Below, piece after piece: positions 2,325 through 58,106 of a DNA stretch of 64,000 nucleotides. The first letter of the stretch is position 1, and the number at the start of each line of letters is the position of its first letter. The notes under the pieces are model-generated. The model saw nothing but the letters and a program-made list of their open reading frames with translations. It made no database searches and had not been told where the DNA came from. This DNA comes from an uncultured archaeon (GTDB taxonomy: Archaea; Iainarchaeota; Iainarchaeia; Iainarchaeales; GCA-2688035), in NCBI GenBank assembly GCA_964354805.1, contig CAYHBD010000030.1, positions 6,800-70,799 on the forward strand, read 5' to 3'. Position numbers and translations under genes: made by a program.

Positions 2325-3632
2325 TCAGATTTCCCTCTCATTCTTAATTAGCTCTTCCAGCATTTGCCTTTCCCTGATTACTTTTGCCTCTCCGTTCAAC
2401 AGGAGAATGCACGCAGGCAACAGCCTTGAATTGTAATTTGATGCCATCACAAAACCGTAAGCGCCGGCGTTGAGAATTGCAAGCGTGTCACCCTCTTTTG
2501 CTGCTGGCAGCGCTCTCAGCTTTTCCCTGTTTTCGTTAAAAACATCCACGCTCTCGCACAAATTCCCTGCAACCAAAAATTTTCGCTTCAGCTTTCCATT
2601 CACATTGTCGCATACAACCATTTCATGGAAAGCACCGTAAAAAGCAGGCCTTATTAAATCATTGAAGCCAGCGTTCACTCCAATCAACGGAACATTTTTT
2701 TCCTCAACAGTATTTATTTCACACAGCAAAACACCGGCATCGCAAACAATAAAGCGCCCTGGCTCGATTGCAATCTCTGCCCTCAAACCGCTTTTCTGCA
2801 TTTTTTCAACAATTCCCTTTGCGTAACGCTGCAACGGAAAATCCTGCTGCTCTTCTCGGTATCTTACGCCCGGTCCTCCTCCGAAATCAACAAATTGCAG
2901 CTTTTTCCCTAAAATTTTTTCAACCTTTTTTGCAACGGCAATTGTTTTGCCAACAGTTTTAAGAAAAACCTGCACATCCTTGCCAAGCCAGCCTGAACCA
3001 ATGTGCTGGTGCAGACCGACAACATTGAAGCCGAGCGCTTTCGCTTCCTTGAACGCAAGCCCGATTTTTTTCTCTGGTATGCCGAATTTGATGAATTTGC
3101 CTGCGGTAATTGTGTGGCTGTGCGCTCCAGCTCCAATGCCAGGATTCCACCTAATACTTACATCACCTTTATAACCCAAGGAATGCAATCTCCTCATTTG
3201 TGAAAAGCTGTCAATGTTTATCCTCACACCCAATTCAATCAATTCCTGCAATTCGCTGTCGCTGACCGAGGTGCCTGTGAAAAGGATTTTTTCTTTTGAA
3301 AAACCTGCTTTCAGCGCAATCTTTACCTCATTCACTGAAACAGCATCAATGAATGCTCCCTCCCTCAACAGCAGCTGCAGCACTGCAATGTGCGAGTTTG
3401 CCTTCACTGCGAAATGGATTCTTGGACTTGCGCCAGCTTTGGCAAAAGCGCTTTTTATCGCCCTGAAATTTTCAATTATTCTGTTGCCATTGTAAACAAA
3501 AAGCGGCGTGCCGTACTGTTTTGCAAGCGCTACCGCGCTGTTCCCTGCAATGTATAGCTGGTTTTGCTTGACTTGCAAATGTCCGTCAATTTCCCACCAC
3601 ATCATGAACTCACCATTCAATTGCTCCAACAA
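2325..3632 (-). CDS. lysA: Diaminopimelate decarboxylase
   Basis: PLP-dependent fold III decarboxylase motifs (HFAVKAN, FGGGPGVRY, CESVD), in a dap gene cluster. An internal start MMWWEIDG at about 3605 would remove the overlap with dapF. Confidence 0.9.
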   Translation of the reverse strand: MLEQLNGEFMMWWEIDGHLQVKQNQLYIAGNSAVALAKQYGTPLFVYNGNRIIENFRAIKSAFAKAGASPRIHFAVKANSHIAVLQLLLREGAFIDAVSVNEVKIALKAGFSKEKILFTGTSVSDSELQELIELGVRINIDSFSQMRRLHSLGYKGDVSIRWNPGIGAGAHSHTITAGKFIKFGIPEKKIGLAFKEAKALGFNVVGLHQHIGSGWLGKDVQVFLKTVGKTIAVAKKVEKILGKKLQFVDFGGGPGVRYREEQQDFPLQRYAKGIVEKMQKSGLRAEIAIEPGRFIVCDAGVLLCEINTVEEKNVPLIGVNAGFNDLIRPAFYGAFHEMVVCDNVNGKLKRKFLVAGNLCESVDVFNENREKLRALPAAKEGDTLAILNAGAYGFVMASNYNSRLLPACILLLNGEAKVIRERQMLEELIKNEREI

Positions 3633-4440
3633 AAACTTTTTGCGCTGCTCCCCTCAAAAAAACTTTTTCGCCTGCCTTTATTTCAAGAGCACCGCCTGGC
3701 ATTTCAACGCTGACCCACTGGTTTGCATCAGCAACGCCTGCGTTTATGGCTGCGACAACTGTTGCAATTGCGCCGCTGCCGCAGGCAGATGTTTCGCAGG
3801 CGCCCCTTTCATGCACCCTCATTTTAATTTTCTTCGGAGAAACAATGTTCGCAAACTCAGTATTTGTTCTATGTGGCTGAAACGCTTTGTGCCATTCAAA
3901 CTCATGCCCTATTTCTTCAACAGGAAAATGCTGCACATTCTCTTTCAGAAAAACAACGGCATGCGGATTTCCAACATCAACGCTGTAATACTCAAAGCCC
4001 TTTATCCCGGCAATTAACTGGAATTTTCCCTTGAAGATAGGCTTTGCCAGCAGCTGCAATTCAACTGTTGCCTTGTTTTTCTTTTCATCGGAAACCTTTG
4101 CTGAAACAATTCCATTGCCTGATTCAATCCTGAAATCCTTTTTCTTTTTTCCTTCGATTAAAAAACGTTCAAAGGCAACGCATCTCAATCCATTAACGCA
4201 TGTTTCTGCCTCGCTGCCGTCAGCATTAAAGGTTCGCATCCTGAAATCGGCTTTGGCTGAACTGGACTTGCACAAAAACAGCACGCCATCTGCCCCGACT
4301 GCAACGTGCCTCTTGCAGTTGTTTACTGCAAAAAATTCCTTGTCCCTTTCAGGAACCACTTCCCCCTGCATTTCATTTACAACAATGAAGTCATTTCCCA
4401 GGCCGTGCATTTTGCTGAATTGAACAATCATTTTTATCAA
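3610..4440 (-). CDS. dapF: Diaminopimelate epimerase
   Basis: MHGLGNDFIVV N-terminus, plus the two catalytic Cys contexts (NADGSEAETCVNG and ETSACGSG). Confidence 0.9.
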   Translation of the reverse strand: MIKMIVQFSKMHGLGNDFIVVNEMQGEVVPERDKEFFAVNNCKRHVAVGADGVLFLCKSSSAKADFRMRTFNADGSEAETCVNGLRCVAFERFLIEGKKKKDFRIESGNGIVSAKVSDEKKNKATVELQLLAKPIFKGKFQLIAGIKGFEYYSVDVGNPHAVVFLKENVQHFPVEEIGHEFEWHKAFQPHRTNTEFANIVSPKKIKMRVHERGACETSACGSGAIATVVAAINAGVADANQWVSVEMPGGALEIKAGEKVFLRGAAQKVFVGAIEW

Positions 4441-4464
4441 ACCCTGTTTCCATTGTTTTTCCTG

Positions 4465-5658
4465 TCATTCCAGCAGCCGCTCTGCTGCTTCCCTTGTTTT
4501 TTCAACACTTTGCACCATTGCAAAGCGCACAAACCTTTCCCCCGGGTTTTTGCCCTGGAAATCATGCGAAATCAGGCTGCCTGGGATATTGTTAATGCCC
4601 TTTTCAAGCAAAAGCCATTCGCTGAATTGCGCTGCTGTTTTTCCCTTAGGCACTTGAACCCACAAAAAAAATGTCCCCTTTGGTTTTTCAATTCCGCATC
4701 CAATCTGCTGCAGTGCAGGCAGCAATGCATCAATTCTTGCGCTGTATTCTTTTCTCATTTTTTCGCAGTGGGCTTCATCGCCCCAGGCAGCGATTGCTGC
4801 ATCCTGGATGAATGTTGCAACTCCCTGCACGCTTTTCCTTGTGATTGAAGCAAATGCTTTGAGCAATTCACTGTTTTTGCTTGCGGCAAAGCCCACAGCA
4901 TAGCCAGTCATCATGCTTCTCTTTGAAAGCGAATTCACTACAATGCTGCACTCTTCTGCTCCCTTGATCTGCATAATGCTCAAAGGCCTTTCGCTGAAAT
5001 AAAGTTCGCTGTAGCATTCATCAGAAACAAGAATTACATTGTGTTCATTGCAGAAATCAACCGCCTCTTTCAGCTTTTCCTTTCCATAAACCTGCCCTGT
5101 AGGGCTGTGGGGGCTGTTCAGGAAAAGAATTTTTGCCAGCTCAGCTGTTTTGCTGTCAATTGAATCAAACAGTGGCAGAAAATCGTTTTCAGGAAGCAGG
5201 TTCAGATAATAAGGCGCACCGCCTGCCAGCAGCGTTCCGTCAGTGTAAGGCGGATAACCCGGATTTGGAATCATGGCAATTTCCCCCTTATTGGGATTAA
5301 TGAAGTAAGATGGAATGTGGAATGAAGCAAATTTTGCACTATATGTTGAAACAATTTCCCCTGCCTGCATTGAAACACCAAAGCGCTTTTTCATCCATTT
5401 GCACACAGCTTCCCTGAATTCCTCGCTCCCGATTGAAGCAGGGTAGCCGCTGCCTTTTCTTGCATCAACCGCTTTCTTGCACTGCTGCCTTATTGCAGCA
5501 GGTGTTTCATCTGTAGGATCGCCTATGCCGAAATCAATCAAGTGCCCAGAACCGAATTTTGCAATCGCCTTTTTCTTTAAGTCATCGATTGCGTCAAAAG
5601 GATATGGCTTGCCAAGAATGCGCCGCAAATTTTCATTAATCGGCAACTTAAAATTCAT
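4465..5658 (-). CDS. dapL: Class I aminotransferase, probable LL-diaminopimelate aminotransferase
   Basis: PLP-lysine motif NSLSKRSMMTGYAVG and position inside the dap cluster. The start is set at MNFKLPINEN (ATG 5658). The track ORF extends to 5730. Confidence 0.7.
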   Translation of the reverse strand: MNFKLPINENLRRILGKPYPFDAIDDLKKKAIAKFGSGHLIDFGIGDPTDETPAAIRQQCKKAVDARKGSGYPASIGSEEFREAVCKWMKKRFGVSMQAGEIVSTYSAKFASFHIPSYFINPNKGEIAMIPNPGYPPYTDGTLLAGGAPYYLNLLPENDFLPLFDSIDSKTAELAKILFLNSPHSPTGQVYGKEKLKEAVDFCNEHNVILVSDECYSELYFSERPLSIMQIKGAEECSIVVNSLSKRSMMTGYAVGFAASKNSELLKAFASITRKSVQGVATFIQDAAIAAWGDEAHCEKMRKEYSARIDALLPALQQIGCGIEKPKGTFFLWVQVPKGKTAAQFSEWLLLEKGINNIPGSLISHDFQGKNPGERFVRFAMVQSVEKTREAAERLLE

Positions 5659-5818
5659 TGTATCCACCCAGAAATTCAATTCAATCAAAAAAGAATTAAA
5701 GAATTCTATTTGGGAAAATTTAAATAACAATAAGGGTTAAAACGAATTTCGTCCAAATTGGTTATTTATATATAGGTTTTCGTATAGAGGCATTTTATCG
5801 CTTTAAAGGTGAATTGGG

Positions 5819-9708: not shown

Positions 9709-10668
9709 TCAGCTTCTTGCAATTGAGGCGATTTCTTCAAGGCTTTGCGCTTTCTCAAACAGGCGCATTTTTTCTGGGTTCGATGCAAAAAACCTGACTG
9801 CCTGTGTCTTCATCCTGCCCAAATAAGCGCTGATGCCGAACTTTTTGCACAATTCAAGGTATTGCAGGAAAGCCTGCTCCCTGGACAGGAGGTTTGCGCC
9901 ATCAGGCGCGCTTTTCCCAAGGCTTTTTTCCAGCGGGAAAAAAGGCTTGTTGCCCAGAATTTCCGCAAAAATTCCGGGATTGCCTATTGCCGCACTGCCA
10001 ACCATTGCAGCATCACAGCCGGTCTTTTCAAGCATTCGCTCAAAGCTAGGCTTGTTGATTACACCGCCATTCCCTATTACAGGAATGCCAACAGCTTTCT
10101 TGACGCGCTTTATTGCCACAAAGTCAACCAGGCCCCTGTTTTCCTGCTTAATGGTTCGCCCATGCACAGCAATTGCCGAAGCGCCCGCTCTTTCAATCTG
10201 CTTTGCCAGCTTGATTGTGCGCAAAACATTAGGGTCAGACCTTATTTTTGCAGTAACAGGCTTTCCAAGGACATGCCAGCAGGAAATGATTTCGCAAATT
10301 CGCGCAGGCCTCCTCAAAAGCGCGACGCCTGCCCCCTGGTTAAGCACATTACCCGAAGGGCATCCCAGGTTCAAATCCAAAAAATCGAATTCCTTTTCAG
10401 CAATAAGCAGTTCAACCGCCTTTTTCATGCTTTCAACCCTTGCCCCAAAAACCTGCATTGCCAAAGGCCTGTCCTCACCGCAGGTCTGGGCAAGCCTTTT
10501 GACAGAAAGATTGTTCCTTATAAGGGCCTCAGAATTAATCATTTCCGAATAGCACAAGGAAGCGCCCTGCTCCCTGGCCAAAAGCCTGAAGGCAAGGTCA
10601 GTAACCCTGTACATTGGCGCCAAAACAAGCCTGTTTTCCATTTTTGTGCCGGCAATGCTGAAATCCAT
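9709..10668 (-). CDS. dus: tRNA-dihydrouridine synthase (Dus family)
   Basis: LAPMYRVTDLAFR, DLNLGCP and AVHGRT motifs. The start is set at MDFSIAG. The track ORF extends to 10764. Confidence 0.8.
   Translation of the reverse strand: MDFSIAGTKMENRLVLAPMYRVTDLAFRLLAREQGASLCYSEMINSEALIRNNLSVKRLAQTCGEDRPLAMQVFGARVESMKKAVELLIAEKEFDFLDLNLGCPSGNVLNQGAGVALLRRPARICEIISCWHVLGKPVTAKIRSDPNVLRTIKLAKQIERAGASAIAVHGRTIKQENRGLVDFVAIKRVKKAVGIPVIGNGGVINKPSFERMLEKTGCDAAMVGSAAIGNPGIFAEILGNKPFFPLEKSLGKSAPDGANLLSREQAFLQYLELCKKFGISAYLGRMKTQAVRFFASNPEKMRLFEKAQSLEEIASIARS
9908..9949. repeat. Hairpin-repeat family copy inside the Dus coding region, in frame
   Basis: GCGCTTTTCCCAAGGCTTTTTTCCAGCGGGAAAAAAGGCTTG. A 9-bp stem CTTTTTTCC/GGAAAAAAG. 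The core is near-identical to copies at 52784-52815 and 58038-58070. It encodes NKPFFPLEKSLGKS. Confidence 0.75.
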
Positions 10669-10831
10669 TACAAAAACAATACAGAAAAAGACTATATTCC
10701 AATGCCCTAATGCACAGGCTTTTGCCGGAAAGCAGTGAAAAACAAAGGCAAAACCCCAAGCCATCTTCGCTCAGCTTTTAATAAAAGCCGGCAAAAACAG
10801 CCTCGCTTTGCTCGGCGAGCTCGATGGAATA

Positions 10832-10946
10832 AGCCCCGGGAGGGATTTGAACCCTCGACCCCCGGCTATCTCGAATTTTTCTTTTCGCACGCCTTTTTCT
10901 AAAAGGCTTTTACGAGGTCGGTGCTCTACCACTGAGCTACCAGGGC
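10832..10946 (-). tRNA. tRNA-Thr (anticodon CGU) with a 43-nt canonical 37/38 intron
   Basis: Manual cloverleaf: acceptor GCCCTGG/CCGGGGC, D arm GCTC-AGTGGTA-GAGC, anticodon loop CTCGTAA after splicing, T arm GAGGG-TTCAAAT-CCCTC. BHB motif: central helix CTCG/CGAG flanked by 3-nt bulges TAA and ATA. Confidence 0.85.
10868..10910 (-). other. tRNA-Thr intron, made of hairpin-repeat family sequence
   Basis: Sense sequence AAAGCCTTTTAGAAAAAGGCGTGCGAAAAGAAAAATTCGAGAT, with a 7-bp hairpin GCCTTTT/AAAAGGC followed by GCGAAAAG. Confidence 0.8.
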
Positions 10947-13039: not shown

Positions 13040-13861
13040 ATGCTGAACAGAAAAGGCCTTGCGAAGCAATTTTCCCAAAGCTTTTTTTCCGAAGGAAAAA
13101 AAGGCTTAGCAAAGCAATTTTTCCCAGGGGTTTTTTGCACGCGAAGCAATTTTCCCATCTTGCAAAACCCAAGGTTTTGCGAGACCTCGCAAAAGCGAAG
13201 CTTTTGCAAGGAGGCTTTTTTTGCAACGGCAAAAAAAGGCTTAAGCGAAAAAGGCCGAGCTGAAAGCCGTTTTCCCTGGGATTTTTTTGCAACAGCAAAA
13301 AAAGGCCAGGAGAGCGCGCCATTTGAGCTGCTGGTTGCTGTAATAATAATGGGCTTTGTCATATTCATTGGAACAAGTGTAATGCAGCAGGTAAATTGCG
13401 AGAAATGCAAGGGCGAAACCAATGCAAAGCTGGATCGAATGGCAACCGCGTTACAGAATGCTGACGAATCAGGCAGTATTCAACCAAACGTAAGTTTTTT
13501 TTTAAGCGGCTGCTTCAACCAACAGGAAGAAAAAATCTGGATTGAGGACGAAGACGATCCCCAAGTGTGTGCTGCCTATCATTGCGGTGAGAAGCAGTTA
13601 TGCACTTTGCTGAAATACTATGGTAATGGCTGCGGCGGGTTCAGCATCATAAAGTGCCTGGATATCACCCCTGACGCCGATTTTCCTTCCATATCAGGGG
13701 GCAGGTGCGAAGAAAGAGATGGAATGCAATTAGTGGATTTCGAGAAAAGGGAGGAGCCGATAGCAACAGGGGGCAACAAGCAGGGCAACTATTTGCTGTG
13801 GAACAAGACAGGGCAGGGCGACACTTTTTCAACAATCTGCGCTTACAGGAAAGAGGGTTGA
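13040..13861 (+). CDS. Cys-rich type IV pilin-like protein whose leader peptide carries a 249-nt repeat array
   Basis: ATG 13040 with SD AAGGTG. Removing 13059-13307 gives MLNRKGQESAPFELLVAVIIMGFVIFIG, a canonical class III signal peptide. The ORF also reads through the array without a stop. Confidence 0.6.
   Translation: MLNRKGLAKQFSQSFFSEGKKGLAKQFFPGVFCTRSNFPILQNPRFCETSQKRSFCKEAFFATAKKGLSEKGRAESRFPWDFFATAKKGQESAPFELLVAVIIMGFVIFIGTSVMQQVNCEKCKGETNAKLDRMATALQNADESGSIQPNVSFFLSGCFNQQEEKIWIEDEDDPQVCAAYHCGEKQLCTLLKYYGNGCGGFSIIKCLDITPDADFPSISGGRCEERDGMQLVDFEKREEPIATGGNKQGNYLLWNKTGQGDTFSTICAYRKEG
13059..13307. repeat. Array of hairpin-repeat family modules (249 nt) flanked by the direct repeat AAAAGGCC
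   Basis: AAAAGGCC occurs at 13051-13058 and 13300-13307. Perfect hairpins: 13081-13090/13094-13103 (10 bp), 13162-13169/13173-13180 (8 bp), 13215-13224/13229-13238 (10 bp), 13282-13290/13295-13303 (9 bp). Confidence 0.85.
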
Positions 13862-14536: not shown

Positions 14537-15037
14537 ATGAAAAACGGGGGTTTTTTGGGTCCAATTGGGGATGATTTGCCGAGCCTGATTCCGCTGCTTT
14601 TTGCTTTAATGCTTTTTTTTTATGCTTTTACATCTGCTTGGAATAATTTTGACAGGAGGAATGAGGATTTTGCCGATGACCTGGCAGTGCTCAGGGCAAG
14701 CAATGCATTGAGGGGAAACAATTATATTGCGGGAATTGAAAAATTCAATGAAAACTGCGAGACAGCGAAAGGAACCCAGAGAATGCACTTTTTGGCCGGA
14801 TTGCTGCCCTTGCCTACAGGGAAAGATGAGCAATTTGTTGGAATTGATACTGAAAAAATAGTCAGCGGCGATCAAAGCTTTTTTGAAGACTTTCAATGCA
14901 GCAGCACTGAGGAAATACCCGTGCTGGAAAGCGAAAAAAGCGTTGTTAGGTTCTTTCCTGTTGCCTTGGAAACAAAAGAGGAAAACGACAAGTTTTATGT
15001 AAAGCCGATGTTGCTGGTGGTCATTGCATGGAAATAA
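14537..15037 (+). CDS. Pilin-like / membrane-anchored hypothetical protein
   Basis: MKNGGFLGPIGDDLPSLIPLLFALMLFFYAF. Start chosen at ATG 14537. The track ORF starts at 14498. Confidence 0.4.
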   Translation: MKNGGFLGPIGDDLPSLIPLLFALMLFFYAFTSAWNNFDRRNEDFADDLAVLRASNALRGNNYIAGIEKFNENCETAKGTQRMHFLAGLLPLPTGKDEQFVGIDTEKIVSGDQSFFEDFQCSSTEEIPVLESEKSVVRFFPVALETKEENDKFYVKPMLLVVIAWK

Positions 15038-15849
15038 AGCTTGGCGAAAAAGGTCCTGTTTTGCGAAGCCTATTTTCCCCAGGCTTTTGCAACAGCAAAA
15101 GGCTGTTGCGAAGCAAAACCCATTTCCCTGGGATTTTTTGCACGCGAAGCAATTTTCCCAAGGCTTTTTCACGAAGTGAAAAAGGCTTAAGCGAAAAAGG
15201 CCAGTCCAGTTTGACTGATTCCATGTTTTTCCTGGTAATAGCCAGCATTTTGAGCACTTGGCTTTTCTATTCAAGCGCAACCTACGGCCTGACAATAGAC
15301 CAGCAAATTTCAAGGCAGGGCAGGGAGGAATACACCAAGTCTGCGCTTGAAACAATTTTGTACAGCAGCGCGCCGAGGCAGGCAGGCCTTTCTTTGGAAG
15401 AAGCATCAGAGATTGACTACCTGCTTGCGGCAATAAAAGAGGACTACGCTGATGACACTGAACTGGATGAAACAAAAGCAATTCTTTTCCAGAACATAAA
15501 TGCCGTAATGCAGCCGCTTGCAACAAACAGCAACTACCTTTTCTACATATATATTGCTCAAAAAAATAAATTTGTTGTCACTTTTTTGTACGCAAGCGAA
15601 GCAAAAAACGATGACGGCTGGAGCTTAACCGGCAACAAAATTGTTTTTTCCTGCGTGCCGCCAAGCAAGCAGGCAGTGGAAGAATTCCTGCTTACGGTTG
15701 GCAGGATGTCTGTCAGCAACAGCAGAATTCAGCTGCTTGAATCAAAAGAGCCGGCTCCTGACAGATACGATGCCCTAATCACTTTAATCACTTGGATTCC
15801 AACGCCAGTTGATGAAAGCGACCTAAACTGCACTAAATTCACTGGCTGA
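15028..15849 (+). CDS. Type IV pilin-like protein whose leader peptide carries a 147-nt repeat array
   Basis: ATG 15028 with SD GGTGG. Removing 15056-15202 gives MEIKLGEKGQSSLTDSMFFLVIASILSTWLF. The ORF reads through the array in frame. Confidence 0.6.
   Translation: MEIKLGEKGPVLRSLFSPGFCNSKRLLRSKTHFPGIFCTRSNFPKAFSRSEKGLSEKGQSSLTDSMFFLVIASILSTWLFYSSATYGLTIDQQISRQGREEYTKSALETILYSSAPRQAGLSLEEASEIDYLLAAIKEDYADDTELDETKAILFQNINAVMQPLATNSNYLFYIYIAQKNKFVVTFLYASEAKNDDGWSLTGNKIVFSCVPPSKQAVEEFLLTVGRMSVSNSRIQLLESKEPAPDRYDALITLITWIPTPVDESDLNCTKFTG
15056..15202. repeat. Array of hairpin-repeat family modules (147 nt) flanked by GCGAAAAAGGTC / GCGAAAAAGGCC
   Basis: Direct repeats at 15044-15055 and 15191-15202. 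Hairpins at 15084-15090/15095-15101 and 15164-15172/15176-15184. The 27 nt at 15134-15160 are identical to 13131-13157. Confidence 0.85.
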
Positions 15850-21868: not shown

Positions 21869-22603
21869 CTAAATCCTGAGCGCGAATGTTTCCCTCTTTT
21901 TCTGTTTCCCTGTCCTGTCAACTCCAATCAGCTTGAATGTTTTCGTTGCATCTGTTTTGAATTCTTTTTCCAGCTGCTTTACAGCCAAGGCAGCTGCTTT
22001 TTTTGATCCGACTATTGCATCGATTGAGTTTTTTTTCTGTGTTGCGGAAACAATTGCGGCCAGACCGTCTCTTTTTTGCAGGGATGCGAGCAATTGCCTC
22101 AGCCTGTTGAAAGCAGCAGCTGCTTTTTCCCCCCTAAGCTGCACTATTGCCTCAAAGTAATTGCTTTTCAGCTTCATGCAAGCATCGCACTGCATTGCGG
22201 GAAAAGAGATTGTTGTTTTCCTTTCAACCAGAACAGGCGTGTTTTCAATTACGCCCTTTGCCGTTACGATTGCCTGCATTTCCTTTTCACTCAACCGCTG
22301 CAATTCAACTGACAGGGCAGCATCTGTCAGCTCCTTAACCTTGCATTTTTTTTTGACGAACTGCTTCAATAGTTCCAAGTCAAAAGCGTGCATTTTCCCT
22401 GAAAGCAAAATTTTTCCGCATTGCTTGCAGCGCTGCAACTCGATTTTTTCAGGCAACTGCAGAAGCGTGTGCTCTTTCAGGAAGCACTGGAGGCAGCTGC
22501 CCCTTACAAAAAGGCTGTCTGTTGCACCGCAGCTCGGGCAAAATAATCTGCCCAAAGCCTTTTTGCCTTTTGGCAAAAAGCCTTGGGAAAAGTTGCTTCG
22601 CAT
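21869..22603 (-). CDS. NMD3-family protein (archaeal homolog of the ribosome export adaptor)
   Basis: N-terminal double zinc motif FCPSCG...CLQCF...CKQCGK. Start set at ATG 22603, 4 nt after the upstream stop. The track ORF extends to 22645. Confidence 0.7.
   Translation of the reverse strand: MRSNFSQGFLPKGKKALGRLFCPSCGATDSLFVRGSCLQCFLKEHTLLQLPEKIELQRCKQCGKILLSGKMHAFDLELLKQFVKKKCKVKELTDAALSVELQRLSEKEMQAIVTAKGVIENTPVLVERKTTISFPAMQCDACMKLKSNYFEAIVQLRGEKAAAAFNRLRQLLASLQKRDGLAAIVSATQKKNSIDAIVGSKKAAALAVKQLEKEFKTDATKTFKLIGVDRTGKQKKRETFALRI
22551..22601. repeat. Hairpin-repeat family copy forming the first 16 or so codons of the NMD3-like gene
   Basis: Gene-sense sequence GCGAAGCAACTTTTCCCAAGGCTTTTTGCCAAAAGGCAAAAAGGCTTTGGG, with a 9-bp hairpin CTTTTTGCC/GGCAAAAAG. 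It encodes RSNFSQGFLPKGKKALG, similar to the peptides encoded by the pilin arrays. Confidence 0.75.
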
Positions 22604-44967: not shown

Positions 44968-45654
44968 TTATTCCCTTTCTCCAAACAAAGCAGTGCCCAA
45001 GCGCAACATCGTGCTCCCTTCCTCGATTGCAATTTGGTAATCATTGCTCATTCCCATGCTCAGTTCGCGCAAACCAAGCTGCTGGGCAAGCTGCCTCATT
45101 TTCTTAAAATACTGCCTTGTCTGCTCCGCAGGCAAAAGGGGAGCCATGCAGAACAAGCCTTTCACCTGCAAATTGGGCAGTTTTTTTATTTCATTATAAA
45201 AAGAGGGAACATTCTCCGGCAGCACGCCGAATTTGCTTTTCTCAGCGGCAATATTCACTTCAATAAAAACTGGGAATTGCTTTTCCGCTGCATCATTTAT
45301 TTTCCGGGCGAGCTTTAACGAATCAACGCTCTGAACGCACGAAAACAATTCAACAGCTTGCAGGACTTTGTTGCTCTGCAGGTGCCCGATGAAATGCCAT
45401 TCAACTCTGCCGCCGATTTCTTTTATTTTTTGCTCTGCTTCCTGCACATAGTTTTCTCCGCAGATTCGAATGCCTGCAGCAATCGCTGCATTGATTTTTT
45501 CAATTGGCTGGGCTTTAACCGCTGCAAGGATTGAAATTTCATCTGCATCTCTGCCTGCCTTTGCGCAGGCAGCTGCAATGTTTTTCTTGATTGCAGCAAA
45601 ATTCTGGTTTATTTTTTCAGCAGATAAATTTTGCATATTTATCCTCTGTTGCAT
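44968..45654 (-). CDS. yggS: YggS/PROSC-family PLP-binding protein
   Basis: LAAVKAQPIEKI, ICGENYVQEA, WHFIGHLQSNK and MGMSNDY motifs. The track ORF's N-terminal extension to 45786 overlaps a better small ORF. Confidence 0.85.
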   Translation of the reverse strand: MQQRINMQNLSAEKINQNFAAIKKNIAAACAKAGRDADEISILAAVKAQPIEKINAAIAAGIRICGENYVQEAEQKIKEIGGRVEWHFIGHLQSNKVLQAVELFSCVQSVDSLKLARKINDAAEKQFPVFIEVNIAAEKSKFGVLPENVPSFYNEIKKLPNLQVKGLFCMAPLLPAEQTRQYFKKMRQLAQQLGLRELSMGMSNDYQIAIEEGSTMLRLGTALFGERE

Positions 45655-45727
45655 TTCGTAACGCGTCTGCAAAAGCATTTTTTGTTTTTGCCGAGCTGTT
45701 GTTAGCCTCAAGGTAAAAGAAAAGAAA

Positions 45728-48171: not shown

Positions 48172-48519
48172 CTATTCCTCCAAAATGCTTTTTGACAAAA
48201 TAATCGAATTAACTATGCTGTTAACGCTTGCCCTCAGTGCGGTTGCATCTGATGCATTAATACCTATTTGCACTGCATTGTTTTTAATTTTAACATGTGT
48301 TGCGCTTCTCTTAGCATGCACTGCATTTAATTCTGGACCAATTGCTTTCAAAAAAATGCCTGCTTCTTTTTTCGGCACAGCAATGCTGATGCTCAAATCA
48401 AAGCCTTTTTTGCTTAAGCCTTTTGCTTCGCAAAACCCTTGGGAAATTTGCTTCGCCTGCAAAAAACCCTTGGGAAAAGGGTTTTGCTTACGCAAAACAT
48501 ATTCCGGTGAATGCTGCAA
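48172..48519 (-). CDS. pcc1: KEOPS subunit Pcc1-like protein with repeat-derived N-terminal codons
   Basis: The C-terminal two thirds, FDLSISIAVPKKEAGIFLKAIGPEL...IGINASDATALRASVNSIVNSIIL, match the Pcc1/CTAG pattern. TTG start 48519 with SD GAGGT 8 nt upstream. Confidence 0.65.
   Translation of the reverse strand: MQHSPEYVLRKQNPFPKGFLQAKQISQGFCEAKGLSKKGFDLSISIAVPKKEAGIFLKAIGPELNAVHAKRSATHVKIKNNAVQIGINASDATALRASVNSIVNSIILSKSILEE
48412..48497. repeat. Hairpin-repeat family copy in the 5' end of the Pcc1-like gene
   Basis: Gene-sense sequence TTTTGCGTAAGCAAAACCCTTTTCCCAAGGGTTTTTTGCAGGCGAAGCAAATTTCCCAAGGGTTTTGCGAAGCAAAAGGCTTAAGC, followed by AAAAAAGGC. Confidence 0.8.
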
Positions 48520-48525
48520 GCGCGA

Positions 48526-48666
48526 TTACCTCGCTTTGATGTTTTTTGCAATCGGTTCCCTGACTTTGTACATTATTTTGTAAGCGCAGACTGGGCAGCG
48601 CAGGATTCCTTCAGGCAGGGCGTTGATTACTTCACCGCATTTAGCGCATTTGTAAGGCATTCTCAT
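48526..48666 (-). CDS. rpoP: DNA-directed RNA polymerase subunit P (Rpo12)
   Basis: MRMPYKCAKCGEVINALPEGILRCPVCAYKIMYKVR is the zinc-ribbon pattern of RpoP. The track ORF's 5' extension overlaps the L37Ae tail. Confidence 0.8.
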   Translation of the reverse strand: MRMPYKCAKCGEVINALPEGILRCPVCAYKIMYKVREPIAKNIKAR

Positions 48667-48682: not shown

Positions 48683-49333
48683 TTATTTTTTCTTTCGCTC
48701 TTCTTTCTTTTCTTTTGCTTTCTCTTTTCCTTTTGTTTCCTTTTCAATTCTCTTTTCTTTTCGTTCTCTTGGCGCAATTTTTTCTTTTCTTTCTTTGCCG
48801 ATTTCTTTTTCTTCGTGTTCCCCTAATTGCTTTTCCTCACTGCCGATTTGTTTTTCTTCTGGCTTGCGCTCTTTCCATTCTATTGTTTCTTTTCCTTGTC
48901 CGAAAAAGTCCCTTCTTCCTTTTCCTCGCTCTCTCCATTCCCTTCTTTCCCTGTAGATTTCCCTGCTTGCTCTTCCGCCCCATTCCCTTTTTCCCTCTGC
49001 CCCGCTTTCATCGCCTGCCTCTTCTTCTGCCCAGTCTTCTTTTGTGCTTAGCAGTTCTTTCATTGAAGGCAAAAAGCTTCTCTGGGCAACCATTTTTTGC
49101 ACAATCGAGCCAGGCAAAGTGGTGGGCAAATACGCGCCTCCTGCGAATGTGTTATCGCATTTCCTGCAGCTATAGATGCCTGGCGCTTTTCTCCTCACTC
49201 TCTCGGCTCCGCAGAACGGGCATGGGTAGTATTTGTGCTGCTTGCTTTCAATTTTAAGCAGGCTTTTTCTTATGCCAACGCCGTATCTTGCCCCATAGCG
49301 CCCAGCGGTTTTAACTTTTAAAGTGTTGCCCAT
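48683..49333 (-). CDS. rpl37ae: Ribosomal protein L37Ae (eL43) with a K/E/R-rich C-terminal extension of about 130 aa
   Basis: The N-terminal 85 or so aa, TAGRYGARYGVGIRK...YPCPFCGAERVRRKAPGIYSCRKCDNTFAGGAY, are the canonical eL43 zinc ribbon. The rest is a charged low-complexity tail. Confidence 0.85.
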   Translation of the reverse strand: MGNTLKVKTAGRYGARYGVGIRKSLLKIESKQHKYYPCPFCGAERVRRKAPGIYSCRKCDNTFAGGAYLPTTLPGSIVQKMVAQRSFLPSMKELLSTKEDWAEEEAGDESGAEGKREWGGRASREIYRERREWRERGKGRRDFFGQGKETIEWKERKPEEKQIGSEEKQLGEHEEKEIGKERKEKIAPRERKEKRIEKETKGKEKAKEKKEERKKK

Positions 49334-52689: not shown

Positions 52690-52830
52690 TTTGAAAAAAT
52701 CAATGCTTGCAAAGCAATTGCCCTTTCCCCCATAATGCCAAGCTAAAGAATTATTTGTTTTTGTTCCATTGCTTGGCATTATGCCAAGGCTTTTTTCCCG
52801 CAGGAAAAAAGGCTTATCCAAAGAAAATTG
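52690..52830. repeat. Composite palindromic element in the psmA-SBDS spacer, including a hairpin-repeat family core
   Basis: Hairpin at about 52701-52720. A perfect 13-bp stem CATAATGCCAAGC (52731-52743) / GCTTGGCATTATG (52771-52783). Family core CCAAGGCTTTTTTCCCGCAGGAAAAAAGGCTT (52784-52815). Confidence 0.7.
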
Positions 52831-52855
52831 CATTAAATCCATTCAAAAAATTTCT

Positions 52856-57985: not shown

Positions 57986-58106
57986 TGGGCCCGACCGGGA
58001 TCGAACCGGCGACCTCCACCATGTTGAAGACCTTTTTCCCAAGGCTTTTTTCCGCAGGAAAAAAGGCTTTGTCGAGGTGGCGTCATAACCGCTAGACCAC
58101 GAGCCC
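57986..58106 (-). tRNA. Intron-containing tRNA, probably tRNA-Val (GAC). The anticodon loop assignment is uncertain.
   Basis: Acceptor GGGCTCG/CGGGCCC, anticodon stem CCACC/GGTGG, variable loop AGGTC, T arm GCCGG-TTCGATC-CCGGT. The loop 5' part is TCGACA, followed by a 48-nt insert. The best model gives loop TCGACAT, with C at position 33. Confidence 0.65.
58022..58069 (-). other. Intron of the tRNA-Val-like gene, made of a hairpin-repeat family core
   Basis: The plus strand reads CCTTTTTCCCAAGGCTTTTTTCCGCAGGAAAAAAGGCTTT. The core is near-identical to 9917-9948 and 52784-52815. Confidence 0.7.

Follow-up and report, generated by a model that had tools for sequence, protein, structure and literature searches.

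Repetitive extragenic palindromic (REP) elements of bacteria lie outside genes. Each is one imperfect hairpin, 30-45 nt long and framed by conserved flanks, and occurs in many copies that are often clustered. The "byps" of Magnusiomyces mitochondria break the reading frame and are bypassed. Rickettsia palindromic elements (RPEs) are short multicopy palindromic repeats located in frame within unrelated protein genes and also outside coding sequences (PMC10969869). The repetitive hairpin-forming elements (RHEs) of sponge mitochondrial DNA are described as short mobile hairpins invading coding and RNA genes (PMC2800124), and bulge-helix-bulge (BHB) introns are known from an archaeal protein gene, cbf5 (PMC2738675). 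Here, we describe a family of short hairpin repeats in a 64,000-nt stretch of contig CAYHBD010000030.1 (hereafter, the window, to which all coordinates refer), focusing on the copy in the first codons of a gene for a Pcc1-like protein (pcc1). The 33 extra residues of this protein are a recent repeat insertion, neither an ancestral extension nor an intron. The repeat has been inserted into pcc1 with the frame kept, it behaves as selfish DNA, and it is most likely read through from the TTG at 48519.

The closest analogue of the family is the RPEs. In both cases, multicopy hairpin repeats occur in frame in unrelated genes as part of the open reading frame (ORF), are found in non-coding DNA as well, and are inserted where the protein tolerates them (PMC10969869). 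The repeats analyzed here are multicopy hairpins, and in-frame insertion was observed by comparison with relatives in pcc1, in a gene for a protein similar to tRNA-dihydrouridine synthase (Dus-like), and at a pilin-like locus. In contrast to the RPEs, they reside in a DPANN archaeon and have another consensus; the likeness is one of kind, and homology is not expected. Family units are ~45 nt long and the composite ~91 nt, versus ~100-150 nt for RPEs. Further differences are the modular and often tandem organization of the archaeal family, its stems that vary yet stay perfectly paired, the 8-bp direct repeat flanking the insert, the copies in tRNA introns, and a pronounced preference for sense copies within the first 10-30 codons of genes. 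Our literature searches yielded no description of this repeat family, and as far as they show, it is an undescribed archaeal counterpart of the RPEs. With a stop-poor hairpin repeat that colonizes coding sequence in either orientation as well as tRNA introns, small DPANN genomes lend themselves to the study of protein tolerance of insertions, repeat movement without obvious inverted ends, and tRNA intron growth.

A protein identical to the product of the window ORF is present in public collections (P0001). The 90% cluster of P0001, taken together with P0002, contains three proteins of 115 aa with the inserted block and seven proteins of 82 aa without it. The 82-aa proteins read MQHSPEYDLRISIAVP (MQHSPEYDLRISIAVPKKEAG...), and the 115-aa proteins follow the pattern MQHSPEY(D/V)L(H/R)-KQN(P/L)FPKGFLQAKQISQGFCEAKGLSKKGF-DL(R/S)I(N/S)IAVP.... 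At the DNA level, we aligned five empty loci (L001, L027-L030), the filled locus L026, and the filled window. The flanks of empty and filled loci are ~95% identical, and the gap is exactly 99 nt, i.e., 33 codons. The 99-nt block can be placed at 48499-48401 or at 48491-48393, the two placements being equivalent through an 8-bp repeat. In L026, a perfect direct repeat of 8 bp, TGATTTGC, flanks the insert on both sides, and a single TGATTTGC is present at the empty sites. The empty and filled alleles, the 99-nt gap, and the 8-bp duplication argue for an event at the DNA level; hence, a repeat of ~91 nt, together with an 8-bp duplication, was inserted after codon 8-10 of pcc1. The features of the locus, all on the minus strand, are as follows.

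48172-48519, minus strand: Pcc1-like ORF, 115 aa with the insert and 82 aa in relatives without it (ORF list)
48526-48532, minus strand: stop codon TAA of rpoP (48528-48526) overlapping the Shine-Dalgarno (SD)-like GAGGT (48532-48528), the same in all seven aligned loci
48517-48519, minus strand: TTG start of the Pcc1-like gene (Model A of an earlier note on this DNA), 8 nt after GAGGT and conserved in the empty alleles
48498-48500, minus strand: ATG in the +1 frame (Model B of that note), not a start codon; the same ATG is present in L001 and L027-L030
48492-48499, minus strand: left copy of the 8-bp repeat (target-site duplication), TGTTTTGC, with one substitution relative to TGATTTGC
48401-48491, minus strand: inserted element of 91 nt, a two-hairpin composite in which modules I and II are followed by the tail AAGCAAAAAAGGCTT
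48459-48487, minus strand: hairpin 1, GCAAAACCCTT-ttccc-AAGGGTTTTTTGC, seen in the minimum-free-energy fold
48416-48456, minus strand: hairpin 2, a canonical family unit, GCGAAGCAAATTTCCCAAGGG-TTTTGC-gaa-GCAAAA-GGCTT (structural scan)
48393-48400, minus strand: right copy of the 8-bp repeat, TGATTTGA, with one substitution relative to TGATTTGC, holding an in-frame TTG at 48396-48394
48181-48396, minus strand: conserved Pcc1 domain, wholly downstream of the insert (PF09341 and PDB alignments)

The earlier note had placed a family repeat in the opening codons of the Pcc1-like gene, which is borne out by the block gained relative to the empty relatives. It had put the length of the family sequence at about 86 nt, or at 74 nt between two direct repeats; the sequence is indeed there, and the inserted block measures 99 nt. 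The positions given for GAGGT, the TTG at 48519, the ATG at 48500, and TAAGCAAAA at 48490 and 48416 all check. The two copies of TAAGCAAAA (48490-48482 and 48416-48408, 74 nt apart) are internal parts of the element and not its borders. Approximately 90 nt of the insert align with window positions 15108-15203, in front of a pilin-like gene, and blastn of the L026 copy against this segment gives 83.5% identity over 91 nt. Hairpin 2 differs between the pcc1 copy and the 15108-15203 copy in a compensated way, TTTTGC/GCAAAA versus TTTTTCAC/GTGAAAAA.

The ORF is open from the TTG at 48519 down to 48172 and yields the peptide quoted in the earlier note, and its Pcc1-like label holds: Pfam Pcc1 (PF09341) matches residues 42-113 with 40.4 bits (cut-off 20.9), covering profile positions 2-74 of 75, and Pcc1 chains in the PDB (8up5, 5jmv, 8unk, 3enc) align with it, beginning only at residue 40-42. 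The order of genes is exosome Rrp41/Rrp42, L37ae, rpoP (identified by Pfam PF03604), pcc1, and prefoldin beta, a conserved archaeal cluster. The five empty and two filled aligned loci all retain GAGGTAA and the bases between the TTG and the insertion point, and the neighboring rpoP and prefoldin genes have GGAGG(T) at a spacing of 8-9 nt. The 82-aa relatives share the N-terminus MQH(S/P)PEY(D)L, and a homologue of 56% identity, which begins (M)LPKYVLELALG and has its own SD-like GGGTG upstream, retains P-K-Y-V-L-E. Since N-terminal residues are kept at such a distance, the stretch upstream of the insertion point is coding. The earlier note had proposed, as one of two start models, that translation from the TTG at 48519 with its GAGGT runs in frame through the repeat. 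This model is supported by the conservation of the start in repeat-free relatives, and the comparison of Pcc1 N-termini, which the note had suggested as a check, also favors it, as the 82-aa proteins share the start residues and have no repeat. As judged from sequence comparison, the 115-aa Pcc1 starting at TTG 48519 appears to be the right gene model.

In the whole window, CCCAAGGGTTTT with at most one mismatch is found seven times, as compared to 1.04 expected, and none of 100 shuffles reaches seven. A structural search identified nine hairpin units in the window; when related loci are included, the number of unit hits is 47, with 36 distinct sequences. In the canonical unit, (T)GCGAAGCAA-n-TTTCCCAAGGC is followed by a T-rich stem (5-9 nt), a loop (3-5 nt), the strand exactly complementary to the stem, and GGCTT. 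Stems are perfect in 46 of the 47 hits, and their sequence differs between copies. Among 15 units of equal geometry, both sides changed in six of 12 pairs, and none of 500 shuffles reaches the observed covariation score; these units had been preselected for at most one stem mismatch, and the outermost covarying pair lies outside that selection. Stop codons over the six frames number 0.64 per unit versus 5.1 in shuffles (none of 500 as low), and 16 of the 36 units have no stop in any frame. A repeat able to persist within ORFs in both orientations would be expected to show such depletion in all six frames.

An Rfam search of 48300-48600 at a permissive threshold retrieved no meaningful family. 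HMMER with the 90-aa repeat-encoded leader of a pilin-like protein against 1.84 billion representative proteins gave one marginal match (E = 3.7e-4), which has no bearing on the spread of the family, and a word-index protein search with concatenated unit peptides returned P0001 itself only. Family copies were observed in several Iainarchaeum (Diapherotrites) metagenome-assembled genomes (MAGs) and in one MAG labelled Micrarchaeota; the latter points to a broader distribution of the family, to its horizontal spread, or to an error of binning. The copies in Candidatus Iainarchaeum MAGs, together with the names of the Dus homologues ("Candidatus ainarchaeum" and "Diapherotrites"), assign the source of the window to a DPANN archaeon of the Iainarchaeum/Diapherotrites group. 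In other MAGs, sense units are located 13-30 codons into long ORFs, e.g., MKKGL-[AKQFSQGFFSEGKKGF]-VSIIIP; one unit is in the middle of a gene (L009), and others form intergenic tandem arrays.

Based on these comparisons, we propose the following sequence of events. A member of the family, which is common in Iainarchaeum-type DPANN archaea, inserted as a ~91-nt composite after codon 8-10 of pcc1, duplicating the 8-bp target TGATTTGC and thereby adding exactly 99 nt, or 33 codons. The original ribosome-binding site and the TTG at 48519 are retained, and ribosomes most likely translate through the insert. In the resulting Pcc1 protein, 33 additional residues would separate a short N-terminal stub from the first beta-strand, at a place that lies outside the conserved domain and can tolerate them. 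The element behaves as selfish DNA, with genic copies surviving only where the frame is kept. In agreement with the last point, all five independent length events observed in coding DNA are multiples of three (99, 54, 54, 96, and 153 nt, the last from comparison of 96- and 249-nt arrays), for which the chance without constraint is ~0.004. The intact SD sequence and start codon, the multiples of three, the stop depletion, and the lack of a fitting BHB favor translation, and the insert in pcc1 is most likely translated. We infer that it is neutral for Pcc1 function. For annotation, this means that the 115-aa model with the TTG start would be right for Pcc1 and that the repeat explains extra leader residues in pilin-like and NMD3-like genes. 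The other copies in protein genes, tRNA genes, and intergenic DNA of the window are as follows.

9917-9946, plus strand: unit in the Dus-like gene (9709-10764, minus strand), antisense to the gene, within an in-frame insertion of 54 nt (protein and DNA alignments)
13058-13306, plus strand: module array of 249 nt in a pilin-like gene (ORF 13040-13861), between MLNRKG and QESAPFELLVAVII
15050-15203, plus strand: module array in a second pilin-like gene (ORF 15028-15849), between MEIKLGEKG and QSSLTDSMFFLVIA
22557-22586, minus strand: unit in an NMD3-family gene, filling the 21 residues before the domain (Pfam NMD3 starts at residue 22)
52784-52813, plus strand: intergenic unit within a ~108-nt block that L027 and L030 lack
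58039-58067, plus strand: unit in a tRNA gene (57986-58106, minus strand), antisense and occupying most of the intron (Rfam, sequence, fold)

The insert in the Dus-like gene consists of 18 codons placed directly after the TIM barrel. In the protein alignment, P0013-P0021 have an empty site, P0012 has a double insert, and eight relatives have no insert; the double insert reflects a further 54 nt in L032. Thus, three allelic states are present in public data (+0, +54, and +108 nt). A degenerate direct repeat of ~8-11 bp was found at this site.

Both pilin-like ORFs encode 273 aa and have no Pfam match. They show the features of class III (type IV pilin-like) signal peptides, i.e., KG followed by Q and a hydrophobic stretch, and their leaders are lengthened by 83 and 49 repeat-encoded codons. 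In L032, the array at this site of the first pilin-like gene measures 96 nt and is likewise in frame, versus 249 nt in the window. An alternative start codon beside the mature end was looked for in the two genes and none was found. A prepilin peptidase would be expected to remove the leader, which may explain the tolerance of long arrays at these sites. For the NMD3-like gene and other genes, the support for insertion comes from ORF context only. The long pilin-like leaders and the odd N-terminus of the NMD3-like protein appear to have the same cause as the extension of Pcc1.

The tRNA gene at 57986-58106 matches the Rfam tRNA family with 45.8 bits and has a 54-nt insertion in the anticodon loop. 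It contains an hBHBh' motif at position 37/38, whose central helix has one C-A mismatch and which served as the positive control of our BHB scan; the motif is made from the anticodon stem of the tRNA itself and from bases outside the repeat, without a contribution of the element. Excision of a 48-nt intron would yield the loop UCGACAU with the anticodon GAC (Val) and a C at position 33. Position 33 of tRNA is near-universally U. In the tRNA-Thr (CGU) gene at 10832-10946 (minus strand), the intron is 43 nt long. Its orthologue in a relative of ~90% identity (L032/L033; L032 2028-2213) has an intron of ~113 nt with a clear antisense unit. Hence, tRNA intron length changes quickly via family repeats, and the difference of ~70 nt between the loci is unlike the multiples of three in coding DNA. 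ARAGORN missed both intron-containing tRNAs, and Rfam found them.

Several observations weigh against the proposal that the pcc1 insert is a transposed element read through from TTG 48519. The open frame by itself is weak evidence, as the units lack stops in all frames; it is the multiples of three and the conserved start that carry the argument for translation. The two filled alleles, of the window and L026, differ in the insert by four non-synonymous changes and one synonymous change, so no selection on the peptide is visible; the insert peptide seems to evolve neutrally, which fits a tolerated passenger N-terminal to the fold. In a star-like neighbor-joining tree (607 ungapped columns) the filled alleles are not sisters, and in so weakly resolved a tree this may reflect a single insertion with later precise loss or recombination, or some other history. 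The 91-nt insert has no terminal inverted repeats beyond 4 bp (AAGC...GCTT). The target sites (TGATTTGC, AAAAGGCC, and AACAAACC) resemble the own ends of the element, and the 8-bp repeat may reflect microhomology and not a transposase cut. Finally, the insert is predicted to pair with the TTG region in a fold of -48.2 kcal/mol (z = -2.3), which could reduce initiation at TTG 48519.

If the structure of the insert occludes the upstream TTG, as this fold suggests it may, Pcc1 could be made from the TTG at 48396-48394 (M-SISIAVP...), the insert then being a 5' leader or spacer and the product from 48519 a by-product. This option and the presence/absence insertion of a mobile-type repeat were both missed by the earlier note. 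The duplicated target holds the downstream TTG in frame, directly before the first beta-strand and at the point where homology to the Pfam and PDB sequences begins, and the first nine codons of the longer model vary non-synonymously among relatives. Nevertheless, we consider such a start unlikely. Only a weak AAGG is located 7 nt upstream of TTG 48396, versus the strong and fully conserved GAGGT before 48519; the same TTG is plainly internal in the empty alleles; and the frame-keeping of the coding insertions of the family would be left unexplained. Still less plausible is an artifact of assembly or binning, with a repeat mis-joined into the gene. Metagenome assemblies and a repetitive family would be prone to it, but the filled allele is present in three proteins from different sources (NCBI/Logan, JGI, and ENA) that were assembled independently, and the filled DNA of the window and of L026 differs by ~5% and has the same junctions. 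We regard mis-assembly as excluded by these independent assemblies.

The placement of family members inside genuine tRNA introns (57986-58106 and the tRNA-Thr orthologue in L032) raises the question of removal at the RNA level, either of an intron cut by the tRNA-splicing endonuclease at a BHB or, as the second model of the earlier note had it, of the 74 nt between the TAAGCAAAA copies, which would bring the ATG at 48500 into frame. For an archaeal protein gene, the introns of cbf5 provide a precedent (PMC2738675); they share with the pcc1 insert the location in a protein gene, and with the family the link to tRNA introns. We scanned 48340-48560 for BHB motifs (3-nt bulges separated by a 4-bp helix). 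The scan gave 13-75 weak candidates versus 4-36 in shuffles (75 versus ~36 under relaxed rules), their large number being due to the richness of the region in A/T hairpins. One strict BHB-like candidate, 60 nt long and in frame, would be cut at 48487 and 48426; it was judged fortuitous, arising from cross-pairing of two TTTTGCG-AAGCAAAA palindromes. At spacings of 99 or 74 nt, there is no candidate even under relaxed rules, so that, unlike in cbf5, the boundaries of the pcc1 insert have no BHB. In the tRNA gene, the BHB is supplied by the sequence of the tRNA and not by the element, and the family copies differ in orientation, antisense in the tRNA genes and sense in pcc1. Excision would not require a length divisible by three or a lack of stops, but all five coding events show both. 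The pcc1 insert also differs from the cbf5 introns in being polymorphic at the DNA level with a target duplication. As to the ATG at 48500 (GGAATATGATT), it is equally out of frame in the repeat-free loci L001 and L027-L030, its +1 frame ends at the TAA at 48416-48414 within GGCTTAAGC, and the indel actually measures 99 nt with TGATTTGC at its borders, instead of 74 nt with TAAGCAAAA. This second start model therefore falls, and excision in any form is very improbable.

Sites of programmed translational bypass combine matching take-off and landing codons with a hairpin. In pcc1, direct repeats flank the hairpins (TAAGCAAAA twice and TGATTTGC twice), and ribosomes might leave the message ahead of the hairpins and resume beyond them, as in T4 gene 60 or the mitochondrial byps of Magnusiomyces. 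As the insert is in frame and stop-free, with no stop after the take-off site, no bypass is needed; none of our results points to one, and there is hardly any chance that one takes place. The byps are frame-breaking and both they and the sponge RHEs are organellar, with no sequence relationship to the family described here; what is shared is the presence of short mobile hairpins in coding and RNA genes, described for RHEs in PMC2800124.

The occurrence of one element both in tRNA introns and in the first codons of protein genes suggests a bolder possibility: the family may not be just passive selfish DNA and could spread via an RNA intermediate (through the splicing endonuclease and ligase, reverse splicing, and reverse transcription), or be removed from mRNA or bypassed by an undescribed mechanism. 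We deem this improbable; if true, it would link tRNA-intron gain to protein-gene insertions in DPANN archaea. In a milder version, 5'-proximal hairpins might be used to regulate translation initiation.

Compared to MITEs (miniature transposable elements with inverted repeats), the family is likewise small, non-coding, and multicopy, with presence/absence between strains, direct repeats, and occasional in-frame fusion to ORFs, and the 8-bp TGATTTGC in L026 has the form of a target-site duplication. On the other hand, the inverted ends of the archaeal insert amount to only 4 bp, and the flanking repeats of the family resemble its own ends, e.g., AAAAGGC and TTTGCG. We identified no related autonomous element, and no search was aimed at a partner insertion sequence element. 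With REP elements and bacterial interspersed mosaic elements (BIMEs), the family shares an imperfect hairpin with conserved flanks and many clustered copies; the archaeal units are frequently intragenic, whereas REP elements are extragenic and bacterial. A transposase of the RAYT type was neither sought nor found.

Intergenic arrays of 2-4 units in direct orientation were observed in L022, L023, and L015 (MAG SO_2017_SWC_5), with the subfamily stem TTTCTTTC/GAAAGAAA. In these arrays, the 3' end of a unit (AAAAGGCTT) abuts the 5' end of the next one (TGCGAAGCAA). Such abutment may explain why AAAAGGC-like repeats seem to flank single insertions. In the MAG labelled Micrarchaeota, another DPANN phylum (L007 7367-7467), a unit is located directly downstream of a tRNA-Ala gene. 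The intergenic insertion of the window at 52722-52853 contains a second inverted repeat, TTGGCATAATGCCAAGC ... GCTTGGCATTATGG, apparently a different small palindromic module.

Near pcc1, the L37ae gene (48683-49333, minus strand; also L001 63-785 and L030 4631-5314) encodes 216-240 aa, with a C-terminus in the form of a long low-complexity tail rich in Lys, Glu, and Arg, and prefoldin beta also ends in a K/E-rich stretch. The L37ae tail is probably far longer than usual in archaea. Finally, L026 has ~2.3 kb (3335-5694, including a gene of the TrmB family and a portion of a radical-SAM gene region) in place of ~70 nt at window positions 45638-45710, a larger indel between genomes that are otherwise syntenic.

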